62,871 nt of DNA, taken from positions 1 to 62,871 of the IMG/VR virus record IMGVR_UViG_3300042381_000268. One strand, given 5' to 3'. Below are positions 2-62,871 of this stretch, one piece after another (positions within the stretch are counted from its first letter, which is position 1; each line of letters begins with the position of its first letter). The position numbers and the translations under genes are program-made. The notes below the pieces were generated by a model. The model saw only the letters and a list, made by a program, of their open reading frames with translations, did no database searches and was not told the origin of the DNA. Source of the DNA: a virus. Taxonomy: Duplodnaviria > Caudoviricetes.

Positions 2-151
2 AAGCCATCAACAACGTCAACCTGGCATTTACTTGTTGAAATAAATAAGAAAATAAGTATAAGCCCTGACACATATAAGAAAGTAGAAATCTGGAAACAA
101 TTATATAAATTTTACATATACTATTACGATAAATATGCTATCACCAAATAA
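2..151 (+). CDS. 3' end of hypothetical protein (truncated at window start)
   Basis: Open frame KPSTTSTWHLLVE...YYYDKYAITK ending at TAA 149-151, overlapping the next start. Confidence 0.55.
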   Translation, partial: KPSTTSTWHLLVEINKKISISPDTYKKVEIWKQLYKFYIYYYDKYAITK

Positions 152-926
152 AAAATCAACAAGCAATTACGAAGAACAATATAAAGATATACTTGAACAA
201 TGCATTGCATTTGGGACTGAACGTCACGACAGAACAGGCGTTGGATGTTATTCCATATTCAATGCAAGTTTGAGTATTAATTTAGGCGACGGTTTCCCTT
301 TATTAACCGGTAGAAAAATGTTTGAGAAAACATTTAAAACTGAATTTGAATGGTTCATGAATGGTGAAACCAATATACAAAGATTCAGAGATGCTGGCGT
401 AAAGATATGGGATGCTTGGGCAGATGAGAATGGAGATCTTGGGCCTGTATATGGGCATCAAATGCGCAATTTTAATGATCAAAATATAGATCAGATGCAA
501 ATGCTTATAAAGAACTTAATAGCTGATCCAGACAGCCGTAGACACATTATAAGCTTATGGAATCCTGCTCAGCTTGATCAAATGCGATTGCCTCCCTGTT
601 ATTTGTATTTCCAATTCTTTGTGGATGGCAGCTGCTTGAACATGTTTGTTGTACAAAGATCCGGTGATTTATTCTTAGGTATACCTTACGACGTGGCTTT
701 GTTTTCCCAAATACTTTTGTATGTAGCTGAAAAAACCGGTTATAAAGCTCGTAAACTGGATATTCAGATTGTAGATGCTCATGTCTATAAAACAAGTTCA
801 AAAGCAGTTATACAATATTTAGCACAAGAAACGTTTGATTTACCAAGTTATGAGTATAATAACGAAATATTAACAATTAACAATTATAAGCACGGATTGG
901 TTATTTCTGCTCCGGTGGCTGTCTAA
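135..926 (+). CDS. thyA: Thymidylate synthase-fold enzyme, possibly dCMP-specific
   Basis: DRTG, LGPVYGHQMR, SRR, LPPC (catalytic C155), QRSGD and DAHVY motifs; the specificity residue is D186 (GIPYD) instead of N. Confidence 0.9.
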   Translation: MLSPNKKSTSNYEEQYKDILEQCIAFGTERHDRTGVGCYSIFNASLSINLGDGFPLLTGRKMFEKTFKTEFEWFMNGETNIQRFRDAGVKIWDAWADENGDLGPVYGHQMRNFNDQNIDQMQMLIKNLIADPDSRRHIISLWNPAQLDQMRLPPCYLYFQFFVDGSCLNMFVVQRSGDLFLGIPYDVALFSQILLYVAEKTGYKARKLDIQIVDAHVYKTSSKAVIQYLAQETFDLPSYEYNNEILTINNYKHGLVISAPVAV

Positions 927-937: not shown

Positions 938-1810
938 ATGGAAAAAACTAAGAATTTATACTATTTATATCATATTCCAGGGAAAAAAGTTGGAATGACG
1001 CGTAATATTTATAGAAGGGTCATATTACAACAAGGTTACAAAGATGGTGAATTTCAGATATTAGAATCTTCATATGATAAAGATTTTATAGAGGGTAAAG
1101 AAAAACATTGGCAAGAATGGTTTGGATATAAAAAAGATCTTAACTCTTATGATGACGCAAAAAAAAGTCCTATTAATCAATTTAAATTAAATAAAACTAT
1201 GTACACTAACGTAACAGATCAAACTACAACATTTAATGTTCCAGTAAACAAATTAAAAGGTTTTTTAATGGATAACCTAGGACAAACATTTGAAACAAGT
1301 TATGGCAAATATACTGTAACACCAGAGTTAGTCAGAATATTAGTAGACAATGCTCGTGAATCAATGTACCGCAATACTGCTTGTTATGTATATAATAAAG
1401 TATTATTTGAAGCAACTCAAAAAACAACGCCTAATGATGTGTATTTTGAATTACCAGAAACAACAGATAGTGTATATGATTTAATTAGGCAATGGGCAGC
1501 TGGGCGTGGTATATATACAAGCGGTGATTCTAAAACACAATATACAAAACTATGTGAAGAGTCCGGAGAATTAGCAAGAGCAATACTTAAAAACGATAAG
1601 TCTGAATTAATTGATGCTATTGGAGATATGGTTGTCGTATTAACTAATTTAGCAGCGTTAGAAGGATTAAAAATTGAAGAGTGTGTTGTATCAGCTTATG
1701 ATGTTATTAAGTCGCGACAGGGCTCTATGATCAATGGCACATTTGTTAAACAAGATTATGCGGCTACCACAGCTCCATCATTAAACAATCACATTAAAAC
1801 AACACTATAA
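938..1810 (+). CDS. MazG-like NTP pyrophosphohydrolase with GIY-YIG-like N-terminus
   Basis: C-terminal KLCEESGELA...DAIGDMVVVL MazG motif; N-terminal YYLY..VGMTRN..RR..E. Confidence 0.75.
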   Translation: MEKTKNLYYLYHIPGKKVGMTRNIYRRVILQQGYKDGEFQILESSYDKDFIEGKEKHWQEWFGYKKDLNSYDDAKKSPINQFKLNKTMYTNVTDQTTTFNVPVNKLKGFLMDNLGQTFETSYGKYTVTPELVRILVDNARESMYRNTACYVYNKVLFEATQKTTPNDVYFELPETTDSVYDLIRQWAAGRGIYTSGDSKTQYTKLCEESGELARAILKNDKSELIDAIGDMVVVLTNLAALEGLKIEECVVSAYDVIKSRQGSMINGTFVKQDYAATTAPSLNNHIKTTL

Positions 1811-1811: not shown

Positions 1812-2252
1812 ATGACAAAGCAAGAAATTGAATTTAGAGACCCAGTTGTACAATCTGTAGTAAATAAGTTTGTAGATAGATCTGATGTTGGCTTTGCAAA
1901 GTATGGCAAAACATTACGTGATGATAGCTCTGATGTATTTGCTTGGCTTAATCATTTGCAAGAAGAATTAATGGATGCTACATTATATTTACAAAGATTA
2001 AAAGAAGAAATAACAACATTGCGAGAAGAAAAAGCATTGCTAAGAGAACTAAACGATATTGATGTTATAGATGCTTTTATTGTAGAAGAGAAAAAAAAAC
2101 TGCCGAAAGATTTAAAAAAATTCAAGAAGAACTTGAAGGAGAAGCTTGGTCGTGGGGATAATACAGGTATAAAAAAGTTTCCAAGTGTAAATGATCCTAC
2201 TCGCTATTGTCTTGGGCGTGATTATTGGTATACAGTTGAAATAGATGATTAA
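1812..2252 (+). CDS. Phage protein, putative all-alpha nucleotide pyrophosphohydrolase family
   Basis: RSDVGFAKYG...WLNHLQEELMDATLY motif common in phage nucleotide-metabolism clusters. Confidence 0.55.
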   Translation: MTKQEIEFRDPVVQSVVNKFVDRSDVGFAKYGKTLRDDSSDVFAWLNHLQEELMDATLYLQRLKEEITTLREEKALLRELNDIDVIDAFIVEEKKKLPKDLKKFKKNLKEKLGRGDNTGIKKFPSVNDPTRYCLGRDYWYTVEIDD

Positions 2253-3027: not shown

Positions 3028-4899
3028 ATGAGTTTAAGCTTAGATAAGCAAATATTAAGTGACATTACAGTATACACTAAGTATGCTAAATATTTACCGG
3101 AAAAAGAGAGAAGAGAAACCTGGGATGAATTGGTAACGCGCAACATGGAGATGCATACTGCTAAGTTCCCTAAAATGAAAGAATCAATTGAACAAGTTTA
3201 CAAGAATTTTGTATTTACTAAAAAAGTTTTACCTTCGATGCGAAGCTTACAGTTTGGTGGTAAAGCTATTGAGCTTAATAATGCTCGCGTTTATAACTGT
3301 GCTTTCCTACCTGTTGATAGTATTCATAGTTTTTCTGAGACTATGTTTCTATTGCTTGGAGGGACTGGAGTGGGTTATTCGGTCCAGAACCACCACATTG
3401 AGAAACTTCCTGAAATTAGAAAACCTAATTACAATCGTAAGAAAAAGTATGTTGTTCAGGATAGTATAATTGGTTGGGCAGACGCGGTTAAAGCTTTGTT
3501 TAAATCCTATACTGGAGGATTAACATCACATATAGAGTTTGACTTCTCCGACATAAGAGCTAAAGGAGCTTTACTATTGACCGCGGGAGGTAAAGCACCA
3601 GGCCCTGAGCCACTAAGAATTGCACTAGTAAAGATTGAAGCTGTACTACGTGAGAAAGATGATAGATCTAAACTAACAGATATTGAATGCCATGATATTC
3701 AGTGTCATATCGCTGACGCGGTTTTAGCTGGCGGTATTCGTAGAGCAGCAATGATTAGTTTGTTTGATCTTGATTCTGATGCAATGTTAAATTGTAAAGC
3801 TGGTAACTGGTGGGAAGACAATCCACAAAGAGGTAGATCTAATAACTCTGTAGTATTGTTAAGACATAAGATTGATAAGAGAACTTTCGATAAAGTATGG
3901 GAACGTATTGAAGCATCAGGATCTGGCGAGCCTGGTATTTACCTAACTAATGATAAAGACTGGGGTACAAATCCTTGTTGTGAGATTGCCTTAAGACCAT
4001 ATCAGTTTTGTAATCTTACGGAAATCAATATGGCTAATGTTGAAAATCAAGAAGACTTTAATGCTAGAGCATCCGCAGCGTCATTCATAGGCACATTGCA
4101 AGCATCGTATTCAGACTTTCATTACTTGCGTGATATATGGAAAAAAAACACAGAAAAAGATGCATTATTAGGCGTATCAATGACGGGCATTGCATCAAAA
4201 CATAACATACAATCTTTAAACTATGAAGAAGCAGCACAAACTGTTAAGGAAACAAATAATATTATTGCAGCGGCTCTTAATATCAACAAAGCGGCCAGAA
4301 CCACCGCTGTTAAGCCGGCAGGAACTACTAGCCTTGTACTTGGCACTTCTAGCGGTATTCACGCTTGGCATAACGACTATTATATTCGCCGTATGCGTTT
4401 AGGTAAGAATGAAGCAATCTATTCTTATCTCGCAATAAATCATCCAGAACTGATCGAAGATGAATATTTTAATCCAACATTACAAGCAGTTGTTTCTGTG
4501 CCTCAGAAGGCTCCGGATGGCGCCATAACGCGACATGAATCAACATTAGATTTGTTAGAGAGAGTTAAATTAATTTCTAAAGATTGGGTTAAACAAGGTC
4601 ATGATAAAGGTAATAATACTCATAATGTTTCTTGCACTGTTTCTGTGCGTGATGATGAATGGAAAATTGTTGGTGAATGGATGTGGGCAAATAAAGAGTA
4701 CTATAATGGTTTATCTGTATTGCCTTATCACGGAGGTACATATAAGCAAACGCCGTTTGAAGACTGTACTAAAGAAGTATACGAGCAGATGATGTCTACA
4801 TTACATAATGTTGATCTGTCTAAAGTAATTGAAGTACAAGACAATACTAACTTTTCAGATTCGCAAGCATGCGGAGGAGGTAATTGTGAGATTGTATAG
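3028..4899 (+). CDS. nrdJ: Class II (adenosylcobalamin-dependent) ribonucleotide reductase
   Basis: YNCAF, GGIRRAA, TNPCCEI, FCNLTE, VKPAGT and C-terminal ACGGGNC; no beta-subunit gene nearby. Confidence 0.92.
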   Translation: MSLSLDKQILSDITVYTKYAKYLPEKERRETWDELVTRNMEMHTAKFPKMKESIEQVYKNFVFTKKVLPSMRSLQFGGKAIELNNARVYNCAFLPVDSIHSFSETMFLLLGGTGVGYSVQNHHIEKLPEIRKPNYNRKKKYVVQDSIIGWADAVKALFKSYTGGLTSHIEFDFSDIRAKGALLLTAGGKAPGPEPLRIALVKIEAVLREKDDRSKLTDIECHDIQCHIADAVLAGGIRRAAMISLFDLDSDAMLNCKAGNWWEDNPQRGRSNNSVVLLRHKIDKRTFDKVWERIEASGSGEPGIYLTNDKDWGTNPCCEIALRPYQFCNLTEINMANVENQEDFNARASAASFIGTLQASYSDFHYLRDIWKKNTEKDALLGVSMTGIASKHNIQSLNYEEAAQTVKETNNIIAAALNINKAARTTAVKPAGTTSLVLGTSSGIHAWHNDYYIRRMRLGKNEAIYSYLAINHPELIEDEYFNPTLQAVVSVPQKAPDGAITRHESTLDLLERVKLISKDWVKQGHDKGNNTHNVSCTVSVRDDEWKIVGEWMWANKEYYNGLSVLPYHGGTYKQTPFEDCTKEVYEQMMSTLHNVDLSKVIEVQDNTNFSDSQACGGGNCEIV

Positions 4900-4965
4900 T
4901 TACTTAGGAACAGAATGTTGGATCTATTCATTAGCCATTAATACAAATAACTTAAATTAAATAAT

Positions 4966-5184
4966 ATGAAAGAAAGTGCATTAGTAGATATGCAAAAAAA
5001 GCAGGAGGCCATAATAAGGGTACTGCAAGAAATAATGAATGAGCAACAGCATTTGACAACATTAGCAATGGGGGTTTTAGAAACAATCAAACTAATGCCA
5101 GGATATGAAGACGCAATAAAAGTCTTAATGGAAAAAAGCAAGGCCACAAATGAAGAGCCTGAAAAACCAACACTAGAATTATAA
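4966..5184 (+). CDS. Hypothetical protein
   Basis: Last + strand ORF before the terminator. Confidence 0.7.
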   Translation: MKESALVDMQKKQEAIIRVLQEIMNEQQHLTTLAMGVLETIKLMPGYEDAIKVLMEKSKATNEEPEKPTLEL

Positions 5185-5190
5185 TTTAAT

Positions 5191-5225
5191 AAAAAAAGGG
5201 GACCACAAACGTGTATCCCCTTTTT
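5191..5225. terminator. Bidirectional intrinsic terminator
   Basis: A7-GGGGA...TCCCC-T5 hairpin between convergent gene blocks. Confidence 0.85.
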
Positions 5226-5271
5226 AATTATAGGAACTATTAGGTATGATGCCTATTATCTTTTGCTCCTA

Positions 5272-8200
5272 TTATTCGCCCATTCTTCTTTTTCTTCTTT
5301 TACGCATTTCTTCGCGTTTTTCTTTAGCTCTTTGTATTCTTCTTTCTTTTTTTTCTAAAGCTATTTTACGTCGATACACTCTTATTTCTGTTGGAGATAA
5401 GCCTTCAATACTATCTTTTAATCTTTCAGCATTTTCTCTTCTAGTCTCTTTAGCTTTTAGCAACCCTTCTTCTTTACGCGTTGCTTTAGCGGTTTCTTTT
5501 ATAAGTATATCTCCTTTTGTTCCTTCAATACCAACTGTCCAAGGAGAATAACCTAATCCCACACCAAGTCTTTGTATCGCAGTATTATCTGCATTAAACG
5601 CTTGTGATACATTCTCAACCTTATTAACTAATCGATCCATAGGGAAGTTAGTTCCAACCTCAACAAGTTTCCCTGTTACAGAATACATAGGACCTAAGTG
5701 AACTCTACCATCTTGCATAACGCCCCAACCTCTTTCAGCTATTAAGTCCTTATCGTACTTAGTTTGTTGTAATGCACTATATGTTTTTCTCAACTTAGAC
5801 CCAATTGGTGGCGACATATTTGCTGCTTCAAGAACAACCTTAGCATATTCTGCTTTTTGTTTTTTTGCTCTTTCCTCAAGGTATTTAACAACAGTATTCT
5901 TTAACGTTGCCGTAACGCCTCCAACAAAACCAGTACCTCTAAGTATACTATCTAATACTCCATTTGCAATATCAATAGCAGCATCTTCTTTTGTTTTTTT
6001 CTTTTTGTCTTTTTCTTTATCTTCCTCATCGTCATCAGCAAACAAAACCGCGAACAACCCTTGTTGTAATGTAGAGAACATAATATTCTGTACAGCTAAG
6101 TAATAAGCTATTTTAGATATATTAGTTTTAGCATCACCTCTACCATTTTTAAGATCTAGCGCAGCTTTCTTAACGATACGGGATTGCTGCATTGTAAAGT
6201 TTTGGAATACTAATAATAATCTACCTGCAGCACTCGACTGTTGTTTTGATATATCTTTTGGGTCACCAGATTGCTGTGTTTCGTCTGAAACTTTAGAAAA
6301 ATCCTGCCACGCTTTTGATTCAGCTTCTTGTTCTGTTAGCCCTTCTTTCATGTAAGAATTAATTCTATTTCTATAAAACGGAGCGCCTCCAGAAGCAATA
6401 GCGAAACTATCCGCTAATTGTGTTGGTGTATATCCAATCTTTAATAGATACGATGTTACCGCAACTACTTTATTTTTACTTCCTGCAGCAGCATTAGCAA
6501 TCTCAGCAGAAGCAACATCTTCCCTTAATCCACCACGTCTTTCTTTTAGCTTATCTGAATTCCATATACGAGCAAAGTCTTTCCAGTATTGCGGTTGATT
6601 TAAAAATGCTTTACCCGCATTAAACGGATTGTTGTCTCTCCAGTTTAAGAAGTTAACTGCTCCTAACATCTGTAAAGCAGCGGAACGAGTATTCAAGAAC
6701 ATAATCGCTCCAGTTGAACCATTTACCCAACTACTCCAAGCGGTTGTTTCTTTATCCTGCCCAAAACTTCTATTCTTACCGTTTATCATTCTGTATATAG
6801 AATCTTCTAACGCTTCTCTAACGTTTGTTCCGTAAACAGCTTCTACTTTATTCATATTAGGACCAACTAATCTGCCGTCTTCCCATTTGCCAAAAATATT
6901 TTCTGTGTTTTCAATAAACTCTGCTAAGAATTTCTTTCTACCAGAACCTTCTGTTATATTATATAGATCAGAAACAATAGTATCAGAATCCCAAAAAGTA
7001 CCTGGTGGTAACCAACCATCTTTTTGCCTACCCATTACTATTAACCCATCTTTAAATGCCGCAAGTTCTGGATCATTATTAATAAGATCAGTTAAATAAG
7101 TCACGTCTCTTTGAGATAACCCTGGAATTTCTGTGCCATATTGACTCCATATTGCAACTCGCATTGCTTGATCGTATGTAAAATCTTTATTTGGCGTTAA
7201 CTTTTCAAGGTCTTTTCTAACCTCAGGGAATGATTTTAACAATGCTTTATATTCCTTCTTAATAGATTGTCTTACCGCGTCCATCATGTTTACCCCGTTT
7301 ATATATGGAGTCATTAAAGCATTTTGGAAGAATTTCTTTTGTTCTTCACCTAACTCTCCTTTACCCATAAAATTGTAAAGTAATAATTCAAAATCCGCTG
7401 CAGATGGTGGAACATATAAGTCGAATCTGTTTTTCTTTAAACCTCTTCTCCTTGCGGTAATATCCGAGAATACTTTGTAACTTTCTACGCCCTTATTTTC
7501 TTCAATGATTCTATTGAAATCATCGGACATGGTTAAACTAAATTTAAGTTTAGCTTGCTGTATTTTTGATTTAACATCTAATACTTTTAGAGCATTTTCA
7601 ACCGCTTTAACATTTTGTATTGCATCATCAGAAAAGTAAAAGTCATTATATCCTTCCGCTGCTTTTGCAACCATCCAATCCGCTTTTGCTTGAGCCGTAC
7701 TATTGCCTAATCCGGTTATGTTTTCTAATGGTATGTTAATACCTATTGATGATAGGAATTCATGTATAGGGCCTGCCGCATCAGCAGGACGAGCTGTAAG
7801 AATAAAGAAATTTTCTGGCCCAAATTTACCAATCATCTTCTTCATCTTTTCAACCATTGGACCTGGCTTACCATCTACTACTTTACTAAATTCAGAGAAA
7901 TCAAACACTGCTCCGTCTTCCAAAAACTTAGCCCCTTCTTTAGCAAACTCTTCTGCATTTAATTTACCTTTAGAGCCATCAGGCATTGTGTATAGCACAC
8001 TACCTTTCGTTAATCCAACAGTGTCATCAAAATCAAAAACAGATATGCCCTTAGGTGATTTTGAATATTTTGTTGTTAATGAGTTTGTAACTGCGTCAAT
8101 ATTAATTCCATTTTGCGGATCATATGTTTTTGAAAATCGTACAAACCCGTCACCTAATGTTTTTACTTCCGCATTAGGGTCTAAATTTATTAAGGAGTAT

Positions 8201-11200
8201 AATTTTTCATTTCCTGCGGTTGCTATATTATAATATCTAGAGCCTTCAGAAACATCTCCAGCAATTCCTTTTATTTGAAAGCCAAGTTTTGCAATTTCTT
8301 TATCCATAGAGATAGGAATTACTGCAACATTAAAGTCTTCCATTATATCAGCAAATTGGTTTTTTCTTTCTTGTTTAGACAAATTGCCACTAAATAGTTT
8401 GTATAATTGAGCCCTAGTTTTATCAACACTCTTCAAATGTTCGTAACGCAAATCTCCAAAATCTTTTGGCCCTGAATTTTCATTAAATATCCATTTTGCA
8501 ATAGCCGCTTTTCTTAAAGGACTTTCTTGACTAGAATTTAAACTTTTCCAAAGCATTGCTTTAGCAATATCAGGAACTTTATTTATTGGGTCATAATACC
8601 AATCTAATATTTCATATAAAAATTCTTGGTTTTCTATAGCGGTTTTTTTCTTATTTTCTAAATATTCCGCATTATTTCTATTAGCATATAATTTTTTAGA
8701 GTCATCTTCAATATACCCTTTTCTATTTCTACTAAATCCAGGCTCTAAAACAACTCCAGCAGCTTCTAAAGCATATTTTGCCGCTGCCCAAAATGAAGGT
8801 TTACTAGAATATATTTGATCCGACGCTCTTTTCTTTTTTTCTTTTTTTGTTTTTCTGTCTGTAGCTACTCTTGGCACTTGAGGCACTAATTGATTATCTA
8901 TTATTGTAAGACTATCGTCTCCAATTTGAGCTTGCGACGCTAAAAATGAACCAATTTTTCTTAATCTAGCGCTTAATTCCTCATTATTATATTTTTTCCC
9001 TAAATGAGTTATAAACTTAGAAGTAAATGATTGAGCTTGTCTAATATATTGTTGTTGATTAAATAGTGACCCAATGCTATCTACAATTTTACCCTCTGCG
9101 TCTTTTAATTGATTATTTTTTTGATAATCTAATTTGTTGCTATTTTCTTCAAGGGAAGCATTAATAAAGTTTTTTACATAATCAGCACTTTGTTTTTTTA
9201 ACAAAGGAGCCAATATAGGAGTATAATAACCTTTTATATCTTTTGATAATTCTTTTAAATTTTCATTAGATATGGTTCCGTTATTATAAACTTTTTGTAA
9301 TGCTTTAAAAATATCATCTTCATCAGGAATAAGATTATAATTAATATTAGCCAATTCAGACGCTAATTTAATAGAATTATCTATTATATATTGTTTTTGG
9401 GATAAATCAAAATTATTAAATGTTTTAGAGAATTTAATATTACCTCTATCTGAATCTTTTTGAAATACTGCTGGGAAATTTTCCATAACCTCAACACCTA
9501 GCCTAGTTTGATTAGCTGATAACGCTTCATAAATAGGGCCTTGACTCTCAAGATCCGCATTAATAATATCAAATGCTCCTTCTTCAGCCATTGCCTTTGA
9601 CACAGACTCTTTTCTGCCTCTAATTGGATTACCATCAGGCCCTATTATTTGGGCTAAGAAATCTTCATTAGAAACATTATTATTAACATTAGGTAAACGT
9701 CTAACTAGTTCTGCTCCAGAAGTTCTCCCCGCTTGATCTGTAGTTGTTTTTTCCCTATCAATCTTTTGACCAACCCAGTCCGGGAAACTAACCCACTTAC
9801 CATCAATTTGTTTTTGAATAGCTTGTGGTATACCTCCTTGTCCATCTTTACCCATTAACCAAGTAGTGGTCATGTTCTCGAGGATATACTTTTTGATTCT
9901 TAGTAATTCTTTTCTAAGCACACCGTCTTTTTTGCCCCCTAGCATTGTTTTTATATCAATGTCTAACTGTTTACCAACTTCGTCTCTAATTTCAGAAATT
10001 AATGGCGTTACCGTTCTATTTAATGTGATAGGGGCATCAATCCTAGACTTTAATGTTCTAACTATTGTTACTATCTTGTTTGTGGCTGTTTTTAAGATAT
10101 CTGGGCTAAAAACATTTGATTCTAATGCATTCTTATATTTTGGTTTTTCTTTTACCTCAGAAACAGTTTCTTCAGCTATTAAACCTTTTTCTTCTGTAAC
10201 ATCTTTGCTAAAGTCTTTATCTAATATCCTTCTTGAAGCGGCAATTGCTCTTAATGGTAATTGTTTATTTATATAAGCCGCTAATGGAACTCCTTTTTCA
10301 GACTTATAACTTCTAATAAGATAAAGAAGACCACCGTCTCCGGTTTCTATTTCACTTGTTAATAATTCTCTATCAAAACCAGGGGCATCCATTCTTTTGT
10401 TTACTAATTTTTTAGTAATAGGTTTGAATAGATCTATAATTTCTTGAGCACCATTTACTCCTTTCTCTTCGTATATTCTTTGAACTTTATCAGATGATAT
10501 AGATCCTTTTTCGTTTTTTATTATTTCTTTGTCAGTCTCTTCTTCTGTTACTTCTTTTTTAACTACAGGAGCAATACCAGCTTTTTCTTTTTCAATAGCT
10601 TTTTTAATTTTATCTTCTAAGTTCCTTACTTGTTGATCAAAATCATCTGGATCATAATCGCCTTCATTTTCTTCTAGGTCCTCAAGTTCAGCCTTAAGTT
10701 CTTTTGAAGTTTTAGAAAATTTTAAATCTGTGCTTTTTTCTTCCTCTTCCTCTTGTATTGGATTAGAATAAAGAAATCTAGACTTTATATTACTATCTTT
10801 TCCACCTAATATACTATGATAATCTTTTATTAAATTATAAATATTGGATCCATCCATAGAATCTAAAGACGCTACATCTAATGAGCTTGGATTAGATCCT
10901 ATTATCCCTTTTGTTAACGTATTTAAAAAATTAGATATTCTTGTAAGAGCACTTTCGTTTGGTTTTTTACCGTCTTTAAACGTATCACTTAAAGCGTTTA
11001 ATACTTCTTCCCCATAATTAGTAGCAATAGGTTTGCCATCTTTATCTTCATATGCTTTCATTCTTTCAGAAACTATAGCATGTAAGTCGGGTTGTGATTC
11101 TTTTAAATATTCTAGAAGTTTTTCGCCCGCTTTATTAGCTGTACCTTCGTTTGCTTTAAAGCTAGACTCGGTGATTGCATGCAATAATTCGTGTGAACCA

Positions 11201-14200
11201 ACGCTTGTGTGCCCATTTTCTATAGCTCTAGATCTATTTATAAGAATTGTATTGCCTAATTGTGCTCCATTTGCGCCACCTAAAATATTTTCAATTTCTT
11301 TTTTTGTTAGGTTTTTCTTTATTTTTTTTGCCGCCTTTAGCATTTCTTCAGCGGTATCAACTATTTCAAAATTAATGGTTACACCTAATTCTTTGCCAAG
11401 ATTTTTAGCAAATTCTATATCAGTATCTAAGTCTTCACCTAGTTTTTCTTTTACATAAACGTCTCTAGCAGCTATTTCTAATTCATCTCCTGCTAGTTTA
11501 CTTTTGCCTTCTTCTTCCAATGCAATATTTATCTTACTATAGTAATCTTGTTTGCGCGTGGTTGACATAGAACCAAATGCTTGGGCTTTTTCTAGAACCC
11601 TATTTTGCGTAGTACGAAGGTTATATATACCCCATCCTTCTTGAGCGTTTAACTGTAATTTTTTAGTATTATAATCTTCATTATTTTTTTTACGAACATC
11701 TTCATTACCAAGGATACCTTCTCTAGCATCAACTGTTTCTTTCCAGGCTTGCTCGTAGCTTTCTTTTGCGGCTTTTAATTGAGATTCAGACATGGAACCA
11801 TCCGCCATTGTTTCCTTAAAGTTTTTAGCTAAACTTCTTAGCTTTTGGTTTAAGTCACCAACCTCTTTTACTTGGTCAATACTTAAATCTTTGCCTAATC
11901 TATTTATTATTTCCTCTTTTTCTCCTTCAAATTCATTTATTATTTCTTCAGCCAATCTTCTGGCTTCCGGGGACATAGGTAATTTATTTAAATCATCAAT
12001 CGATGTATCATGATTAATATCCTCGTAATTTGTTATATCTCTTAATTTTTTAACTTTTTTAGCACGATCTGTCATCTCCTTGCGGGTACTAATCTCACTA
12101 ACTATAGCGTTAGTCATAGGTTTAGCCGATGCCATAGCTGCAAAACCCGGCCCCATAAAAGCCCCAGCTGCAGTAGCGTCCGGTACTCCTTCCCATATAC
12201 TTTTTTTAGTATCTCCAAGGATATAAATGTCCCCTAAATTATTTGATAGTTGAGTTAATCCTTCTGTAATACCCTCTCTAGGTATTGACTTAGCGGCCTC
12301 TTTTACAAATACACCTGTATTGTGTCTAATACCTCTATATAAAGCGTCTTTAGATACAGCTTTCAGTGATTTAGTGGTATTCTTTAAAATTTGCATGGAT
12401 CCAAACTTTTCAAAAACAACTTCGGCTATTCCACCTACTGCTGAAGAAGTTAATCTTTGCCCCTCTGATATATTTAATATACGTTTATCCTCTTTTATTT
12501 GAGCGTTTACTGCAGCAGTTTGCTCTTCAGAAAGAGTGCCACTTTCTAAAGCATCTACATTTTCTTGAAGTCTACTAACCGCGTCTACTTGTTGTGATTG
12601 GATTTCAGATGATTTTGAACCAAAACCACTTAAAAAGAATAATGGAAGAGCAATTTCGCCGGTAAGAGCCATTCCGATAGAAGAGGGCATGCTAGTTGTT
12701 GTTGCCGCTGCCCATCTACCTAAATCATCAAGGTCTTTTATTCCATCAACACTAACTCCTTTTTGATATGAACTTTGTTCTTTCTCTAAATCTCTACTAA
12801 CACTATATATAGGGTCTAATACTAATCTTTTTGTTATAGAGCGTTTAGCTTCCCATAAGTCCGCAAAAGAGCGACCTGTTCCAGATTGTGCACCTACTAT
12901 AGCCAAATCAGTTAAGCCTGTAGCTATCTCCGTTACGCCACCAGCAATATCTACCGCTGTCTTTTTTAAAGCAGTTGCGGTTTGCTCAAGTCTATTATAA
13001 TTTGCTTTTGAGGCTTCTAAGCCTGCGACTATAAGTTTTTCACTATTAGGAGCTTTATCTACAAGATTATTAAAGTTCTCTAACTTTTTATTATAAGCTA
13101 ATATTTGCTTTTGCGCATTTGATTTTTCTAGGGGGGTAGCATTTTTATTGCTAATAATTGATTTTATGGTATTATCTAATGCAATACCTTCTGCTTTTAA
13201 AGCCTCCCCTGTTTTTGGCAAGTTCTTTATCTCTATAAGTTCTTTATTCTTTATAGCAGTTAAAGCCACTCTAGCTTCAGGGTCTAAATCATTTAACGCT
13301 TTTTCAAATCCATATTGCCTTGCTTTGTCATTTTCTGATCCTATAAATTTTTCTAATTTTTCTGTGCTAGGAAAAGGCATTTGGCCAGTTTCTTTATATA
13401 TTTTATATTGATTATATTCATCTGGATTATTAAAATCTTCTTTATTTAGCTTTATTGCATCAATATATTCCTTTTGTGACTTAGTTGAATATGGCGTATT
13501 ATCTCTTAAACGATTTCTTTTAAGCTCTTCTTTTTCTTTAAATTGATTTATTGAAGTTTCGTTCCATAGTTTTATTTTTTGCTCAAAAGTCCTAGATGGA
13601 GGAGCGGCTTTTTTAGTAATAGCGTCGTTTATTTTACCATATTTAGCCTTTGCTTCTTCTGAAAAATTAGTATTACCATATTTTTCTATAAGATCATTTA
13701 ACGCATCGGCAGAAGCTTGGCGTTCTTCCTTGCTTAGAAACGAGCCAACTCGCTGCCCTAAAATCTGCTCAACTTGGTCTCCATTCTTATTACCAATTGT
13801 AATAGCATTCATACGGTCAATGCCATATTTATCCACCGCTCTAGTCTCAATAGGGGTTAACCCATACATTGCAACTATGCCCTTAAGGTTTTTAGAGACC
13901 TCCTCTTCGCTTTCAAAATTAAGCATGGACGCTGTAATAGGCCTCGCCGGAGTATTCTCTATAACCTCATTTGTGTCTCTATCTACTAATTCTTTTGAAA
14001 CATTAGCGTCTATTATGGCTCTTCTTGCGGCTCTTTCTTTAGCTTTAGCTTCCTCTTCAATTTCTTTCTTTTTAGTAAATTCAGTTTTTATTTTTTGTTG
14101 CTTTTTACTTTTAGTAAGCTCGTCCTTAAAACTCCAAGCCTTTGTAGGCTGTCCAATGTCCGTACCCGCAAATGGATCTGATCCAGATGTAAATACCGGC

Positions 14201-14424
14201 TTGTCTTCTATTACGGTTTTTTTAACCGGCTCCTTTTTATTTTTTTTAGTTGCAGTGTCTATTCCTAAAAGTTCAGCCCCCGACTTTACTTTAGTTGCAT
14301 TCGGCTTTGGTTTATACCCGTTTTTTTTAACTATAGCATCAAAGGAGGTTTTACCCTCCTTCGCCATTTTAGTAATTTGATCGTATGTAATTATATTACC
14401 TGAACTGTCTATGTATTCAAACAT
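5272..14424 (-). CDS. Giant internal virion/ejection (polyvalent) protein with zincin, sigma-region-2-like and HAD domains
   Basis: 3050 aa at the end of the virion module; HELLH at aa 1078; sigma-2-like from aa 1326; FDFDDT/TARP/SDD HAD motifs from aa ~2130; five KFS-like motifs. Confidence 0.8.
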   Translation of the reverse strand: MFEYIDSSGNIITYDQITKMAKEGKTSFDAIVKKNGYKPKPNATKVKSGAELLGIDTATKKNKKEPVKKTVIEDKPVFTSGSDPFAGTDIGQPTKAWSFKDELTKSKKQQKIKTEFTKKKEIEEEAKAKERAARRAIIDANVSKELVDRDTNEVIENTPARPITASMLNFESEEEVSKNLKGIVAMYGLTPIETRAVDKYGIDRMNAITIGNKNGDQVEQILGQRVGSFLSKEERQASADALNDLIEKYGNTNFSEEAKAKYGKINDAITKKAAPPSRTFEQKIKLWNETSINQFKEKEELKRNRLRDNTPYSTKSQKEYIDAIKLNKEDFNNPDEYNQYKIYKETGQMPFPSTEKLEKFIGSENDKARQYGFEKALNDLDPEARVALTAIKNKELIEIKNLPKTGEALKAEGIALDNTIKSIISNKNATPLEKSNAQKQILAYNKKLENFNNLVDKAPNSEKLIVAGLEASKANYNRLEQTATALKKTAVDIAGGVTEIATGLTDLAIVGAQSGTGRSFADLWEAKRSITKRLVLDPIYSVSRDLEKEQSSYQKGVSVDGIKDLDDLGRWAAATTTSMPSSIGMALTGEIALPLFFLSGFGSKSSEIQSQQVDAVSRLQENVDALESGTLSEEQTAAVNAQIKEDKRILNISEGQRLTSSAVGGIAEVVFEKFGSMQILKNTTKSLKAVSKDALYRGIRHNTGVFVKEAAKSIPREGITEGLTQLSNNLGDIYILGDTKKSIWEGVPDATAAGAFMGPGFAAMASAKPMTNAIVSEISTRKEMTDRAKKVKKLRDITNYEDINHDTSIDDLNKLPMSPEARRLAEEIINEFEGEKEEIINRLGKDLSIDQVKEVGDLNQKLRSLAKNFKETMADGSMSESQLKAAKESYEQAWKETVDAREGILGNEDVRKKNNEDYNTKKLQLNAQEGWGIYNLRTTQNRVLEKAQAFGSMSTTRKQDYYSKINIALEEEGKSKLAGDELEIAARDVYVKEKLGEDLDTDIEFAKNLGKELGVTINFEIVDTAEEMLKAAKKIKKNLTKKEIENILGGANGAQLGNTILINRSRAIENGHTSVGSHELLHAITESSFKANEGTANKAGEKLLEYLKESQPDLHAIVSERMKAYEDKDGKPIATNYGEEVLNALSDTFKDGKKPNESALTRISNFLNTLTKGIIGSNPSSLDVASLDSMDGSNIYNLIKDYHSILGGKDSNIKSRFLYSNPIQEEEEEKSTDLKFSKTSKELKAELEDLEENEGDYDPDDFDQQVRNLEDKIKKAIEKEKAGIAPVVKKEVTEEETDKEIIKNEKGSISSDKVQRIYEEKGVNGAQEIIDLFKPITKKLVNKRMDAPGFDRELLTSEIETGDGGLLYLIRSYKSEKGVPLAAYINKQLPLRAIAASRRILDKDFSKDVTEEKGLIAEETVSEVKEKPKYKNALESNVFSPDILKTATNKIVTIVRTLKSRIDAPITLNRTVTPLISEIRDEVGKQLDIDIKTMLGGKKDGVLRKELLRIKKYILENMTTTWLMGKDGQGGIPQAIQKQIDGKWVSFPDWVGQKIDREKTTTDQAGRTSGAELVRRLPNVNNNVSNEDFLAQIIGPDGNPIRGRKESVSKAMAEEGAFDIINADLESQGPIYEALSANQTRLGVEVMENFPAVFQKDSDRGNIKFSKTFNNFDLSQKQYIIDNSIKLASELANINYNLIPDEDDIFKALQKVYNNGTISNENLKELSKDIKGYYTPILAPLLKKQSADYVKNFINASLEENSNKLDYQKNNQLKDAEGKIVDSIGSLFNQQQYIRQAQSFTSKFITHLGKKYNNEELSARLRKIGSFLASQAQIGDDSLTIIDNQLVPQVPRVATDRKTKKEKKKRASDQIYSSKPSFWAAAKYALEAAGVVLEPGFSRNRKGYIEDDSKKLYANRNNAEYLENKKKTAIENQEFLYEILDWYYDPINKVPDIAKAMLWKSLNSSQESPLRKAAIAKWIFNENSGPKDFGDLRYEHLKSVDKTRAQLYKLFSGNLSKQERKNQFADIMEDFNVAVIPISMDKEIAKLGFQIKGIAGDVSEGSRYYNIATAGNEKLYSLINLDPNAEVKTLGDGFVRFSKTYDPQNGINIDAVTNSLTTKYSKSPKGISVFDFDDTVGLTKGSVLYTMPDGSKGKLNAEEFAKEGAKFLEDGAVFDFSEFSKVVDGKPGPMVEKMKKMIGKFGPENFFILTARPADAAGPIHEFLSSIGINIPLENITGLGNSTAQAKADWMVAKAAEGYNDFYFSDDAIQNVKAVENALKVLDVKSKIQQAKLKFSLTMSDDFNRIIEENKGVESYKVFSDITARRRGLKKNRFDLYVPPSAADFELLLYNFMGKGELGEEQKKFFQNALMTPYINGVNMMDAVRQSIKKEYKALLKSFPEVRKDLEKLTPNKDFTYDQAMRVAIWSQYGTEIPGLSQRDVTYLTDLINNDPELAAFKDGLIVMGRQKDGWLPPGTFWDSDTIVSDLYNITEGSGRKKFLAEFIENTENIFGKWEDGRLVGPNMNKVEAVYGTNVREALEDSIYRMINGKNRSFGQDKETTAWSSWVNGSTGAIMFLNTRSAALQMLGAVNFLNWRDNNPFNAGKAFLNQPQYWKDFARIWNSDKLKERRGGLREDVASAEIANAAAGSKNKVVAVTSYLLKIGYTPTQLADSFAIASGGAPFYRNRINSYMKEGLTEQEAESKAWQDFSKVSDETQQSGDPKDISKQQSSAAGRLLLVFQNFTMQQSRIVKKAALDLKNGRGDAKTNISKIAYYLAVQNIMFSTLQQGLFAVLFADDDEEDKEKDKKKKTKEDAAIDIANGVLDSILRGTGFVGGVTATLKNTVVKYLEERAKKQKAEYAKVVLEAANMSPPIGSKLRKTYSALQQTKYDKDLIAERGWGVMQDGRVHLGPMYSVTGKLVEVGTNFPMDRLVNKVENVSQAFNADNTAIQRLGVGLGYSPWTVGIEGTKGDILIKETAKATRKEEGLLKAKETRRENAERLKDSIEGLSPTEIRVYRRKIALEKKERRIQRAKEKREEMRKRRKRRMGE

Positions 14425-16807: not shown

Positions 16808-17281
16808 CTATTCGTTTAAAAGTTTATATTCTTTAAATTCATCATACGATTTCCACGTAAGTAAATTTTCTAAAGTTTCTATATCTGTTATATTATCTGG
16901 GTTAGGATATACATTGACAAAAACGCTATCCTCAAGCGCGTGTAAAACTCTTTTTGCTCCCATTGGCGCAGTAACATAACAAGGGGCAATATAATGGTTA
17001 ACACCCTCGCTGGTGGCTATTTCGAGCTCCCCACTGAGCAAAAACCAAGTATGTGATATCTTATACATTTTACCAATTACAAAGCCTCCTTTGCGCATAA
17101 ACATCTCCCTAACATATATACCTTCAGAGAATGAATGTTTCAACGGAAAAGTGCCGTCATCGCCTTTAGCAATACCAGGTAGATCACTACTTAATAAAGC
17201 TTTTTCAAGGTGATCAACTATATTCATAAAGTCACCATTTATTAATCCTTGTTCTGGTTTTAGTGTTATATCTTTATCCAT
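16808..17281 (-). CDS. Cupin-fold phage protein
   Basis: HSFSEGIYVREMF..KG..VIGK..K.SH..FLLSG pattern. Confidence 0.65.
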   Translation of the reverse strand: MDKDITLKPEQGLINGDFMNIVDHLEKALLSSDLPGIAKGDDGTFPLKHSFSEGIYVREMFMRKGGFVIGKMYKISHTWFLLSGELEIATSEGVNHYIAPCYVTAPMGAKRVLHALEDSVFVNVYPNPDNITDIETLENLLTWKSYDEFKEYKLLNE

Positions 17282-18840
17282 TAATATGAAGATTCTACAT
17301 ATCCTAATGACACGGCAAATAGTTCATTTCTACTACTTGGAGCACCAAAAATGCTATTATTAATTAACATAGAAACATTTGCATAATATCCTTTAATACC
17401 ACTAATTGATTGCCCAAATACAACATCTCCTGCTCCGGCGGTGGTATTATTTACAATGTTTGCAAAGTATTTATTTTCTTTTTTCTTGAAGTTATTAATG
17501 GCTATTTGAGTTTCTAAGTTAGCCAATGTATTTACTTGAGCACTATAAGCAATATTCACTGCTCTATCCGTATCGGTTATTAAGTTTAGCGATTGCCAGC
17601 CATTTGTTCCCTCGTAGTTTATAGTATTAAACGTTTTGCATCCTGATACCTCTGGATTAAATACAAACGCAATATTAGAATTGTAGGTTGATCCATAGAA
17701 ACTTCCTCTATATACACTGTTTGTATAATGTCTCCATATATTACCTTCCTTAAAAGTAAATGTTTCGTTTCTTAAACTTTTAATAACTTCAGGTTTGTAT
17801 GTGTATCTACTAACCCAACCTTTTGTATCCTCGTCAAATGCTAATGTTTCATATTTTCCTTTAGAAGGTAGATGCATAGATAAGATATATTGCTTATTGT
17901 GCATGTCCCATCCGCCTACTACAAATCCACTATTGCCAACACTAGATAAATTATCTCTAAAATAATCAAGCATACCATATGCTGATATTTCAGTTATGCC
18001 ATCCTGTGACAATCTTAATACAGCATTCTTTGTTCTATCTGTAAAATATTTTCGATACCCATACATCGCAAAACTTTCCGGGTTAGTACTAATACCATAA
18101 TTTCCGCCATAAGCCTGTATTTGACCTATAACTTGTGCTGATGATGTAGTTACTGGACTACCTTCCGCGGAATATATTGCATTTTTATCAATTAATGCTT
18201 GACTAACTTTGCCTTCCTGGAATATAATAAGATTGGTATCTTCCGCATAAAGCTTTTGTATAGAGCCATTCGCAGGGTCTACAGCTTTTGTTATATCTAC
18301 ACCAACCGAAAATTCATTAGTTCTATTAACGCCTGTTCTTGAGTTAAATATACCTGAATATATCATAGAATTAGCTAAGTGTTGTTGCTTAACAACATCA
18401 TCTACTATATAAGCTTTTACGCCAAAATCAACAGTAGTATTATTATAGCCTCCTCTTATCCTAGCTTCCTCAATGTGCCAATCTTCGTTTTCTTCTCCTT
18501 CGCCTACTTCCGCATAGGCTGCTGGTATATATGTAAAATCAGATAATGGGCCAAACGTTAAGGTAGTACCCGCTGTTAATATGGCATCTAATGGAGTTGT
18601 TAAATAAATTTTAATACCCTCTACACTATACACAAAATTTGTTTTAGCGTTAACCCCTGAGGACCAAGATATTTTTTGGCCTACGGCTATTTTAGCATTG
18701 GCGTCCTCTAATATAATAGAATCATCGCCTATTGCTCCCGCTTCATCTACTTTACCGGTTGTATTAACAACTTCGGTAACTTTTTTCATCTTCTTTAGCC
18801 AGAAAGAGTTAAAATATTTTATTTCTAATGTTGCAGCCAT
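17281..18840 (-). CDS. Tail stabilization/nozzle-like protein
   Basis: GSIQKL..DTNL, YGISTNPESFA.YG...YFTD, LRLSQDGITEIS motifs of crAss-related tail proteins. Confidence 0.7.
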   Translation of the reverse strand: MAATLEIKYFNSFWLKKMKKVTEVVNTTGKVDEAGAIGDDSIILEDANAKIAVGQKISWSSGVNAKTNFVYSVEGIKIYLTTPLDAILTAGTTLTFGPLSDFTYIPAAYAEVGEGEENEDWHIEEARIRGGYNNTTVDFGVKAYIVDDVVKQQHLANSMIYSGIFNSRTGVNRTNEFSVGVDITKAVDPANGSIQKLYAEDTNLIIFQEGKVSQALIDKNAIYSAEGSPVTTSSAQVIGQIQAYGGNYGISTNPESFAMYGYRKYFTDRTKNAVLRLSQDGITEISAYGMLDYFRDNLSSVGNSGFVVGGWDMHNKQYILSMHLPSKGKYETLAFDEDTKGWVSRYTYKPEVIKSLRNETFTFKEGNIWRHYTNSVYRGSFYGSTYNSNIAFVFNPEVSGCKTFNTINYEGTNGWQSLNLITDTDRAVNIAYSAQVNTLANLETQIAINNFKKKENKYFANIVNNTTAGAGDVVFGQSISGIKGYYANVSMLINNSIFGAPSSRNELFAVSLGYVESSY

Positions 18841-35802: not shown

Positions 35803-36080
35803 TATTTAGATCTCCCTTCTGCAAATCCTTTAAATTGTTTAGCTGGTGTATCGTCAGTATCTTTGTCTTCAAGCATTCTTTCTTCTTCGTCTATTCTACT
35901 TAGAATTTCAAATGCATCAAATATGGCTAACTTCTTTGTTGCTGCAGCGTTCTTTAATTTATCTGCGGATAAATCATCATCCCCATTATCTAAGATAGCT
36001 TCCTCTGCAACTTTAATTAATTCAAGAACTGCTTTGTGCCCAGCTTGGATTATACTCTGCTTCGTTTCCTTTGTATTCAT
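35802..36080 (-). CDS. Hypothetical protein, possible terminase small subunit
   Basis: Small helical ORF directly upstream of terL. Confidence 0.45.
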   Translation of the reverse strand: MNTKETKQSIIQAGHKAVLELIKVAEEAILDNGDDDLSADKLKNAAATKKLAIFDAFEILSRIDEEERMLEDKDTDDTPAKQFKGFAEGRSK

Positions 36081-36633
36081 ATTTAATTACAATATCATTT
36101 GATTTCATACAATATAATCTTTCACCATCAACTATAAAGTCATATTCACCATAAGGCTTATATCCTATTAAGTCTCCACGATTGATTTTAAGCTCGTTTA
36201 ATGAGCTATTGTCATATTTTAGTATTCCAATAAGTCTTTGTTCTTTATCTAGCTTAAAATGGTCTATATTCTTTAACGGCTTTACAAAGCACCGGTCACC
36301 AACAGTATTCCATTTGCCATCTTGCTTATATAGATATATTTGATCCAGTTCACAAAAGTATAAATCTTCCATAAGATATGCGCGACTATTCTTTTGCTTT
36401 CCTCTAATATCATAAAATCTTCTAAATACATTATGATGTATAATTACTAGATCCCCAACTTTTATATCAGTATTTTCTATTGCTAATGGAATAGCTACAA
36501 CCTCTGCTAAATTATTTACAGATTTAAAGCTTTCAATCGATGTGTTGATAATTAATTCTTTATCCCCGACAGAAATCTTATTATCATACCGATCTCCCAC
36601 TGGTCTTACTAAATAGCTAAATACGCTTCTCAT
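36022..36633 (-). CDS. Tandem GroES-like co-chaperonin
   Basis: Two GroES-like halves: VRPVGDR..IKVGDLVI and VGDRCFVKP..GDLIGY..VDGERLYCMKSNDI. Confidence 0.6.
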   Translation of the reverse strand: MRSVFSYLVRPVGDRYDNKISVGDKELIINTSIESFKSVNNLAEVVAIPLAIENTDIKVGDLVIIHHNVFRRFYDIRGKQKNSRAYLMEDLYFCELDQIYLYKQDGKWNTVGDRCFVKPLKNIDHFKLDKEQRLIGILKYDNSSLNELKINRGDLIGYKPYGEYDFIVDGERLYCMKSNDIVIKYEYKGNEAEYNPSWAQSSS

Positions 36634-39286: not shown

Positions 39287-39728
39287 AATTCGTATTTTTA
39301 TTTGCGTTATTTATAGACTTAATTAATACCGTATCAGTATAAGTTTTGCCTCTCATTATTTTGTTGCTTCTTGGGCTTGTTGGTATTTCTTCTTCACCAA
39401 TCATTATTCGATACATGCGATTTATTAGCATTCTACACTTAAAAGAAACTTTATATATATTGTATTTTTGGGTTGTATGATTTCTATTTCTCCACACAAC
39501 TATCCATCCTTCTTTTAATAAATTATTCCAGCGTTTATTATCCCAGCTATAAGCGTATGTACCTATCTTGTAATCTTGCTTTGTGAAAAAATCCATACAA
39601 TCAAAATAGATCAGTAGCTCTAGATCGGCATCGGTTAAATCATTATTCCTGCATGCCCATCTGCGAATTATCCTGTAGTGTTTTAATATATTGTTATTTC
39701 TGAGATCGCTAAATTCTAAACGTTTCAT
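39279..39728 (-). CDS. Hypothetical protein, possible winged-helix
   Basis: LTDADLELLIY...LLKEGWIVVWR...IYKVS pattern. Confidence 0.55.
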   Translation of the reverse strand: MKRLEFSDLRNNNILKHYRIIRRWACRNNDLTDADLELLIYFDCMDFFTKQDYKIGTYAYSWDNKRWNNLLKEGWIVVWRNRNHTTQKYNIYKVSFKCRMLINRMYRIMIGEEEIPTSPRSNKIMRGKTYTDTVLIKSINNANKNTNYE

Positions 39729-62654: not shown

Positions 62655-62871
62655 TGGCAAGTATTATTAAAGCAAGTATCAATTTAAATGAAATTCCTAA
62701 AAACAAGATTATAGATGGCAAGAAAGGAAAATACCTTCCCATAACTATAACAATTAACGATGAAGTAGACCAGTTTGGTAACCAAGGACCAATACAAGTT
62801 GAACAATCAAAAGAAGAAAGAGAATCAAAAGCAGCAAAAGTATATCTTGGTAACGTAAAAGTTGTATGGAC
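62654..62871 (+). CDS. Probable ssDNA-binding protein (3'-truncated)
   Basis: MASIIKASINL..GKKGKYL...DQFGN...SKEERE...YLGN; follows ERF and exonuclease. Confidence 0.6.
   Translation, partial: MASIIKASINLNEIPKNKIIDGKKGKYLPITITINDEVDQFGNQGPIQVEQSKEERESKAAKVYLGNVKVVW

Follow-up and report, generated by a model that had tools for sequence, protein, structure and literature searches.

The open reading frame (ORF) at positions 135-926 of the IMG/VR virus record IMGVR_UViG_3300042381_000268 encodes a homologue of the thymidylate synthase ThyA that is predicted to be a deoxycytidine monophosphate (dCMP) methylase, and it probably makes 5-methyl-dCMP together with dihydrofolate. Judged from its sequence, the protein is most likely an enzyme of the type represented by the deoxycytidylate 5-methyltransferase of phage Xp12, so that the principle is one already familiar from Xp12 and from metaviromes. 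The prediction turns on two active-site residues, Asp186 and Tyr156, which replace the Asn and the His found at the corresponding positions (177 and 147) of Escherichia coli ThyA. These residues are strictly kept in a large group of related phage proteins.

The window, that is the whole stretch of DNA analysed here, is the complete record of 62,871 bases, which is linear and has a CheckV completeness of 98% and a guanine-plus-cytosine (GC) content of 33.5%. Among its ORFs of at least 70 amino acids (n = 64), 61 were covered by Pfam and 50 by PHROGs, and six-frame family searches were run over the whole record. Three samples of relatives underlie the counts given below. These are the nearest 120 of 6,108 protein matches to ORF 135-926 (71-93% identity), 80 related viral loci retrieved from 103 confirmed IMG/VR stretches, and a wider survey in which 1.84 billion cluster representatives were searched exhaustively and the best 150 representatives (of 50%-identity clusters) were scored by residue.

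Active site of the ThyA homologue

ORF 135-926 is a full-length member of the ThyA family. It matches PF00303 over residues 14-252 (E 1.8e-73, 247.4 bits against a cut-off of 24.3) and phrog_160 (3.2e-81), and among the 125 chains of solved structures that it matches the top one is 3ix6_A (1.3e-58). Pairwise identities are 39% with E. coli ThyA, 25% with the Xp12 enzyme and 24% with T4 gp42. The protein is the sole ThyA homologue of the record, in which the six-frame family searches found neither a second ThyA nor a ThyX.

In the HMMER alignment to solved thymidylate synthases the segment 'gdlflgipydva' faces 'adiflgvpfnia', and alignment with E. coli K-12 ThyA sets Cys155 against C146, Tyr156 against H147 and Asp186 against N177, with a Cys-to-Asp spacing of 31 residues. 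A first-pass annotation, made from the letters alone, had pointed to C155 in LPPC, to the Tyr that follows it and to D186 in GIPYD at +31 (codon 690-692), and both translation and alignment bear this out. The canonical pair of Asn at 177 and His at 147 is therefore not the pair found here, as Asp186 and Tyr156 stand in its place. The catalytic residues R33, E70, W92, W95, Y106, C155, R175, S176, D178, H216 and Y218 are all present. Expressed in E. coli numbering (in brackets), the sites that matter for substrate and product are Asp186 (177), Leu152 (143), Asp178 (169), Trp92/Trp95 (80/83) and Val105-Tyr106 (93/94), and the protein ends in the tail Ile257...Ala-Pro-Val-Ala-Val; this active-site set and the tail are invariant or nearly so among the 120 relatives. 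Apart from the two specificity positions, ORF 135-926 is a canonical thymidylate synthase.

Residue code and predicted product

Published work attaches a functional meaning to these positions. In a MetaGPA comparison of ThyA homologues from viral contigs with and without cytosine modification, positions 177 and 147 were the two that set the groups apart most strongly (PMC8670742). Asn177 determines specificity for deoxyuridine monophosphate (dUMP), and its change to Asp turns the enzyme into a dCMP methylase (Liu and Santi 1992; Hardy and Nalivaika 1992, via PMC8670742). Asp177 is read as dCMP, with Leu at position 143 denoting methyl and Asp or Glu at that position hydroxymethyl (PMC13326640, a 2026 paper in Nucleic Acids Research; PMC6400193). 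The hydroxymethylase signature, defined in work on a ternary complex of the T4 enzyme, consists of Asp/Glu at position -3 from the catalytic Cys, Ser/Thr at position -2 from the Tyr that acts as catalytic base, Val in place of Trp83 and the absence of the C-terminal tail (PMC6400193), while a change of Asp169 to Asn is the mark of the flavin-dependent 5-hydroxy-dCMP synthases (PMC13326640).

The code at positions 177/143/169 of ORF 135-926 is Asp/Leu/Asp, with the tail present. The sequence features of an Xp12-type enzyme are found in it, namely the Cys together with Asp at 177, a non-acidic residue at 143 (Leu152) and a retained Asp169 (Asp178). The T4-type hydroxymethylase signature was not found in ORF 135-926, which has Leu152, Pro104-Val105-Tyr106 and an APVAV tail, nor was the Asn at 169 of the 5-hydroxy-dCMP synthases, the corresponding Asp178 being shared by all 120 relatives. 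Because the Asp/Leu/Asp code is joined to the retained Trp80/Trp83, Val93-Tyr94 and PVAV, the predicted product is 5-methyl-dCMP and not 5-hydroxymethyl-dCMP.

Experiments with natural Asp177 homologues point the same way: on co-expression with T4 gp1 in E. coli, 5-methyldeoxycytidine (5mdC) was obtained with the Xp12 enzyme and with five of seven metagenomic homologues (bioRxiv 10.1101/2024.12.05.627091). The first-pass annotation had proposed a dCMP-directed ThyA homologue in a possibly cytosine-modified genome. Its enzymatic part agrees with the conserved residues and with the published Asp177 experiments, and its part on the virion base stays at the level of a prediction. The alignment with ThyA and dCMP hydroxymethylases that it had suggested places Asp186 at the N177 site and confirms that T4 gp42 has Asp there as well, and it finds the hydroxymethylase signature missing. 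Where the annotation had left the product as methyl or hydroxymethyl, methyl is now favoured by the retained features of reductive methylation and hydroxymethyl loses ground with the missing signature.

Conservation of the altered site

Tyr156 and Asp186 are both present in 120 of 120 nearest homologues and in 80 of 80 related IMG/VR loci, so that neither can be put down to a chance substitution or to a sequencing error. Close relatives with Asn at the site, which according to the first-pass annotation would speak against its reading, were looked for, and all of the 120 nearest homologues have Asp. That these 200 relatives all retain Asp and have a non-His residue at 147 indicates selection for the altered site.

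Further out, the eight best of the 1.84 billion representatives (43-69% identity) all have Tyr, and seven of them have Asp, the eighth being a fragment that ends before the site. Canonical His/Asn enzymes appear in this search from about 42-45% identity downward. Among the best 150 representatives the residue at the 177 site is Asp in 36, Asn in 108 and another residue in 6, and the position after the Cys is occupied by something other than His in 24 of the 36 Asp types as against 2 of the 108 Asn types. In a FastTree phylogeny of 146 rows the query falls in a six-row clade, all Tyr/Asp, with 100% local support. The Asp types are strongly clustered in this tree, in which at least 11 label changes are needed and most branches are weakly supported; a single origin of the Asp-type enzymes, tried on the same tree, is with such branch support neither shown nor excluded.

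The MazG-domain protein and the gene block

The gene directly downstream of the ThyA homologue, ORF 938-1810, holds this place in 75 of the 78 related loci that have room for it (Table 1). The structure model of its product (predicted local distance difference test, pLDDT, 81.7) consists of three domains. The C-terminal one, at about residues 176-272, is a MazG/PRA-PH nucleoside triphosphate pyrophosphohydrolase domain with an EExxE...DxxxD motif, whose residues E207, E208, E211, D226 and D230 are invariant in the alignment of homologues, and PF03819 and PF01503 are over the cut-off in 27 of 27 aligned homologues. Comparison with 1vmg gives a profile value of 7.3e-07 and a VIA-align Z of 10.5 over 82 residues, with all of the top 12 rows being MazG-type, and Foldseek matches include the DCTPP1/RS21-C6 deoxycytidine triphosphate (dCTP) pyrophosphatases (dCTPases), MazZ of cyanophage S-2L and MazG enzymes of other specificities. 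The N-terminal domain (938-1432) has a beta-beta-alpha-beta-alpha order and a GIY...YIG-like motif, with Y11, K17, G19, T21, R27 and E55 invariant; T5orf172 and MUG113 are weakly matched in 11 and 13 of the 27 homologues, respectively, and a few GIY-YIG proteins are among the matches in BFVD. The middle domain is conserved and gave no match. A fusion of GIY-YIG and MazG domains is unusual.

In modified contigs, PRA-PH ranks within the top five domains by frequency of co-localisation (bioRxiv 10.1101/2024.12.05.627091). This co-localisation, together with the adjacency of the two genes both here and in Xp12, makes a role in converting dCTP to dCMP plausible for ORF 938-1810, with the qualification that fold or sequence alone does not give the base specificity of such an enzyme. 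The nucleotide metabolism of T4 includes the all-alpha dCTPase gp56. Attempts with hhalign to link ORF 938-1810 directly to T4 gp56 or to the PRA-PH protein of Xp12 were dropped (probabilities of 1.2% and 0.6%), and shared Pfam membership is what remains of the connection.

The first-pass annotation had spoken of adjacent MazG-like genes, in the plural, that remove dCTP. ORF 938-1810 does have the MazG/PRA-PH domain, and the following gene, ORF 1812-2252, matches no MazG family. Its model is of low confidence (pLDDT 64.7) and shows helices at residues 11-31 and 39-81, and a MazG-like nature is not supported, as no significant match was returned by hhalign against ORF 938-1810, PDB sequences, Pfam (E up to 10), Foldseek against the PDB, or Atlas.

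In relatives the order of the block is sigma factor, Erf, exonuclease, a 106-amino-acid ORF, primase/helicase, an ORF of 90-112 amino acids, ThyA homologue, the counterparts of ORF 938-1810 and ORF 1812-2252, DUF1064, small ORFs and ribonucleotide reductase. The primase/helicase of these relatives has 577 amino acids (phrog_239, 1.1e-87). The ribonucleotide reductase of the window would supply deoxynucleotides in the same gene block; against TIGR02505 it scores 256 bits (5.1e-76), under the cut-off of 340.

Table 1. Features of the ThyA homologue and of its gene block (positions in the window)
Feature	Coordinates	Strand	Basis
ThyA-family enzyme, predicted dCMP 5-methyltransferase (5-methyl-dCMP synthase), 263 amino acids	135..926	+	PF00303, phrog_160, 3ix6_A, active-site map
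Leu152 codon; the site corresponds to Leu143 of E. coli and lies at Cys -3	588..590	+	Leu in 120/120 relatives
Codons for catalytic Cys155 (TGT, 597-599, end of LPPC) and for Tyr156 at the ThyA His147 site	597..602	+	invariant in 120/120 relatives
GAC codon for Asp186 (end of GIPYD) at the Asn177 site, determinant of pyrimidine specificity	690..692	+	Asp in 120/120 relatives and 80/80 loci
C-terminal tail Pro-Val-Ala-Val, counterpart of E. coli PVAI, by which the folate site is closed for hydride transfer	912..923	+	alignment
Three-domain protein, 290 amino acids, candidate dCTP-to-dCMP enzyme (putative role)	938..1810	+	PF03819 6.8e-07, PF01503 2.6e-06, phrog_1992 4.4e-33, 1vmg
Conserved 146-amino-acid protein, helical hairpin, invariant W45, H48, E51, E52, D55 and Y59 (EExxD motif)	1812..2252	+	alignment, model
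Class II (B12-type) ribonucleotide reductase, closest to the RTPR model	3028..4899	+	phrog_367 1.3e-132, PF02867 1.6e-09

Proposed pathway

The observed fold, residues, conservation and gene linkage allow the substrate, the product, the dCTPase role and any 5-methylcytosine (5mC) in virions to be inferred, and they suggest the following course of events. ORF 135-926 would act as a folate-dependent enzyme that prefers dCMP over dUMP. Cys155 would attack C6 of dCMP while Asp186 reads and protonates N3/N4 of the cytosine, and methylene-tetrahydrofolate would then be joined at C5. The resulting exocyclic methylene would be reduced by the folate hydride to give 5-methyl-dCMP and dihydrofolate, hydride reduction being expected of an active site that remains closed and hydrophobic (Leu152, Trp92/Trp95, Val105-Tyr106 and PVAV). 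Kinases would carry 5-methyl-dCMP to the triphosphate, from which 5mC would enter the phage DNA. The adjoining MazG-domain protein probably hydrolyses dCTP to dCMP, which would both feed the enzyme and lower the competing dCTP. As a kinase, a dihydrofolate reductase (DHFR) and a polymerase are not recognised in the record, the host would phosphorylate the product, recycle dihydrofolate, supply deoxythymidine monophosphate (dTMP) and polymerise the DNA. Virion DNA may thus come to contain 5mC, and complete, partial or nil substitution would each be compatible with the sequence.

A wider proposal, which is tentative and on balance doubtful, is that an uncultured clade of Flavobacteriia-type podoviruses (at least 103 IMG/VR stretches and 120 protein clusters) would replace cytosine with 5mC by means of a minimal module, made up of the Tyr147/Asp177 ThyA homologue and the GIY-YIG-MazG fusion, without encoding a deaminase, DHFR, deoxynucleoside monophosphate (dNMP) kinase or DNA polymerase. 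The processing of 5-methyl-dC nucleotides would then fall to kinases and the replicase of the host, and these dCMP methylases would form a separate lineage in which Tyr147 acts as a second determinant of specificity.

Evidence against a dCMP methylase pathway and alternative explanations

Several observations weigh against this interpretation. The NCBI thymidylate synthase equivalog TIGR03284 is passed by ORF 135-926 (205.2 bits against a cut-off of 108.35). Two of the seven metagenomic Asp177 homologues gave no 5mdC (bioRxiv 10.1101/2024.12.05.627091), and a characterised Tyr147/Asp177 enzyme was not found in the text of the literature, figures and supplements being outside the search. The Xp12 enzyme, at 25% identity, has Pro147 and Asn143 where ORF 135-926 has Tyr and Leu, and it lies beside a dCMP deaminase and a DHFR, neither of which is recognised in the window. 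In the record as a whole no dCMP deaminase, DHFR, dNMP kinase, C5 DNA methyltransferase or DNA polymerase was recognised by Pfam, PHROGs and six-frame searches. Flavobacterium phage elemoB has no ThyA homologue and yet carries a PRA-PH protein in the same module (BLASTP 5e-06), which shows that the MazG gene is not specific to the pathway.

Restriction-site avoidance was considered as a proxy for modified DNA. Four-base palindromes were counted against their maximal-order Markov expectation. Two relatives without the ThyA homologue have lost particular sites: MW202828 (positions 1-50000) has 0 GATC observed against 146 expected and 0 CCGG against 22, and elemoB (MT497068, positions 1-50000) has 1 CATG against 119, 0 CGCG against 13, 0 CCGG against 11 and 1 GGCC against 21. 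No palindrome is eliminated from the window, in which the strongest deficit is that of CATG (84 against 175) and deficits are at most two-fold, a contrast compatible with a weaker restriction pressure on modified DNA. Among the 80 Tyr/Asp loci, however, GATC and/or CATG fall below a fifth of expectation in 17 (23 cases), nearly all of them distant relatives; an example is locus L074, with 0 GATC against 25 and 0 CATG against 29. It follows that C-containing sites would stay under restriction-type pressure despite any modification, and with these 17 of 80 enzyme-bearing loci site avoidance weighs clearly neither for nor against modified DNA. Palindrome avoidance follows lineage or host, and not the presence of the enzyme.

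ORF 135-926 could instead be an ordinary or bifunctional thymidylate synthase that converts dUMP to dTMP for an adenine-thymine (AT)-rich phage, with Asp and Tyr as tolerated variants. Its 39% identity to E. coli ThyA, the retention of all other catalytic residues and its passing of TIGR03284 fit such a role, as do its place as the sole thymidylate-synthase gene of a 33.5% GC genome with its own ribonucleotide reductase and the name 'thymidylate synthase' that relatives bear in source databases. This explanation is nevertheless unlikely, given that Asn177 sets dUMP specificity and that the change to Asp gives a dCMP methylase (via PMC8670742), and that Asp with a non-His residue at 147 is strictly conserved across the 200 relatives. 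Eight NCBIfam ThyA equivalogs are matched in all, and apart from TIGR03284 they stay below their cut-offs, including the best-matching one, NF002497 (251.6 bits against 327), and six others. A different proposal accepts 5-methyl-dCMP as the product and regards it mainly as an intermediate, which a host dCMP/dCTP deaminase would turn into thymidine nucleotides, so that the pool shifts from C to T and virion DNA is unmethylated or slightly methylated. A branch from 5-methyl-dCTP to deoxythymidine triphosphate has been proposed for Xp12-like phages with 5mC-selective deaminases (bioRxiv 10.1101/2024.12.05.627091), the window has an AT-rich genome and no other route to dTMP, and relatives that bear the enzyme still avoid GATC and CATG. 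The window is, however, without an encoded deaminase, unlike the phages described with that branch; in those phages, moreover, the branch coexists with full 5mC substitution, and a host ThyA would already provide dTMP, which together make this fate quite improbable.

The two remaining alternatives concern other chemistries at the same site. A dCMP hydroxymethylase like T4 gp42, which would make 5-hydroxymethyl-dCMP that is possibly decorated further, has Asp at the 177 site in common with ORF 135-926 and is very improbable on the other features: Leu and not Asp/Glu stands at Cys -3, the Tyr is preceded by Pro-Val in place of Ser/Thr-x, the retained Trp95 faces Val85 of T4, the protein ends in a C-terminal tail, and identity to gp42 is 24% as against 39% to E. 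coli ThyA. No base-decorating transferase was recognised among the ORFs covered by Pfam and PHROGs, and in particular no glycosyl-, carbamoyl- or other transferase in the 61 ORFs covered by Pfam. The flavin-dependent 5-hydroxy-dCMP synthases, typified by RB69 gp48, likewise belong to the ThyA homologues that have Asp at 177 (PMC13326640). For ORF 135-926 such an activity is hardly credible, as the change of Asp169 to Asn is missing, with Asp178 invariant in 120 of 120 relatives; RB69 gp48 and DLP3 gp80, the two for which position 143 is reported, have Glu where ORF 135-926 has Leu, and arabinosyl- or glycosyltransferase genes were not recognised in the Pfam scans of the window ORFs.

Genome context

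The terminase, portal and structural proteins and GroEL/GroES place the window among the podoviruses of Flavobacteriia. No nucleotide-level relatives were found among 50,697 phage records. By terminase, the closest deposited relatives are MW202828 (65% identity) and the Flavobacterium 'elemo' phages (44%), with further terminase matches in Cellulophaga, Tenacibaculum and Maribacter phages. The record is cut within the replication module, stopping after the exonuclease (61917-62871) and starting towards the end of the last small ORF (1-151). Compared with relatives (for example locus L005, positions 3465-6017), about 2.3 kb that include the primase/helicase are missing despite the completeness estimate of 98%, and the primase/helicase is absent from the window because the record ends inside the replication and nucleotide block.

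A 971-amino-acid orphan ORF (44690-47605, - strand) was considered as a DNA polymerase candidate and set aside, having yielded only weak tail-fibre-like leads. Pfam and PHROGs return no match for it, tblastn gives a single weak one in the 50,697 phage records, and Atlas leads weakly to trimeric tail-fibre or YadA-like proteins. Two giant ORFs lie on the - strand, one of 3,050 amino acids with no family match (5272-14424) and one of 2,183 amino acids that has a match to the virion structural family phrog_14478 and a Fib_succ_major domain (18874-25425). ORF 17281-18840 has a crAss muzzle C-terminal domain (PF25729, 5.3e-12). The - strand also encodes a GroEL-type chaperonin (39969-41528; phrog_5725, 5.6e-131) and two Cpn10/GroES-like proteins (39725-39985 and 36022-36633). 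The early region encodes, on the + strand, a T4 endonuclease V-like pyrimidine-dimer glycosylase (56366-56839; PF03013 2.3e-06, phrog_624 1.3e-52) and a phage sigma-70-type factor (60498-61262; PF04542 region 2, phrog_351 1.7e-23).

Implications

If the prediction is correct, the 'thymidylate synthase' labels found throughout an abundant group of aquatic phages would be wrong, and the DNA of this group would be 5mC-substituted. This would bear on restriction-based and methylation-aware virome methods, on defence by modification-dependent nucleases and on estimates of the frequency of modified genomes. It would also provide a natural dCMP methylase that is close to ThyA (39% to the E. coli enzyme), and with it a tool to ask what the change of His147 to Tyr adds to that of Asn177 to Asp. 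As the principle has been established already, the gain is incremental.

Comparison with known systems

The nearest functional precedent is the deoxycytidylate 5-methyltransferase of Xp12 (MT664984, 45326-46195), a ThyA homologue from a phage whose DNA has 5mC for all C. The Xp12 enzyme and ORF 135-926 have in common the ThyA fold, the catalytic Cys, Asp at 177, a non-His residue at 147, Asp169 and a C-terminal extension, and in both genomes a gene of the PRA-PH/MazG family adjoins the ThyA homologue. In Xp12 this gene (46207-46980) is annotated 'hydrolase (HAD superfamily)', and the N-terminal domain of its product belongs to the PRA-PH (MazG-like) family (6.6e-15); it is followed by a gene (46973-47455) with an HhH-GPD glycosylase domain. 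Beyond positions 147 and 143, the Xp12 enzyme differs by Phe83 and by its tail PEVIE, and its host is a gammaproteobacterium with 68% GC, whereas the window is of a Flavobacteriia-phage type with 33.5% GC.

The Asp177 ThyA homologues of metaviromes (PMC8670742; bioRxiv 10.1101/2024.12.05.627091), a class that MetaGPA found to be frequent in modified metavirome contigs, resemble the window in the same diagnostic positions 147 and 177 and in the association with PRA-PH. The homologues tested had been picked for a dCMP-type deaminase within 3 kb, which the clade of the window does not have. T4 gp42 has in common with ORF 135-926 the Asp at 177 and dCMP as substrate (a predicted one for the latter), and it differs in having Asp145, Ser94, Val85 and no tail where ORF 135-926 has Leu, Pro, Trp and a retained tail. 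The literature search on dCMP methylases found no paper on this phage group. Set against the characterised examples as a whole, ORF 135-926 is much closer to bacterial ThyA, has Tyr147, is without a linked deaminase or DHFR and belongs to a Flavobacteriia-type podovirus without a recognised polymerase. In this closeness to ThyA it recalls the engineered mutants E. coli ThyA N177D and Lactobacillus casei thymidylate synthase N229D, in which a single change of Asn to Asp on a canonical scaffold gives a dCMP methylase, as at the site in the window. Unlike these mutants, ORF 135-926 is natural and conserved, and it combines the Asp with a change of His147 to Tyr.

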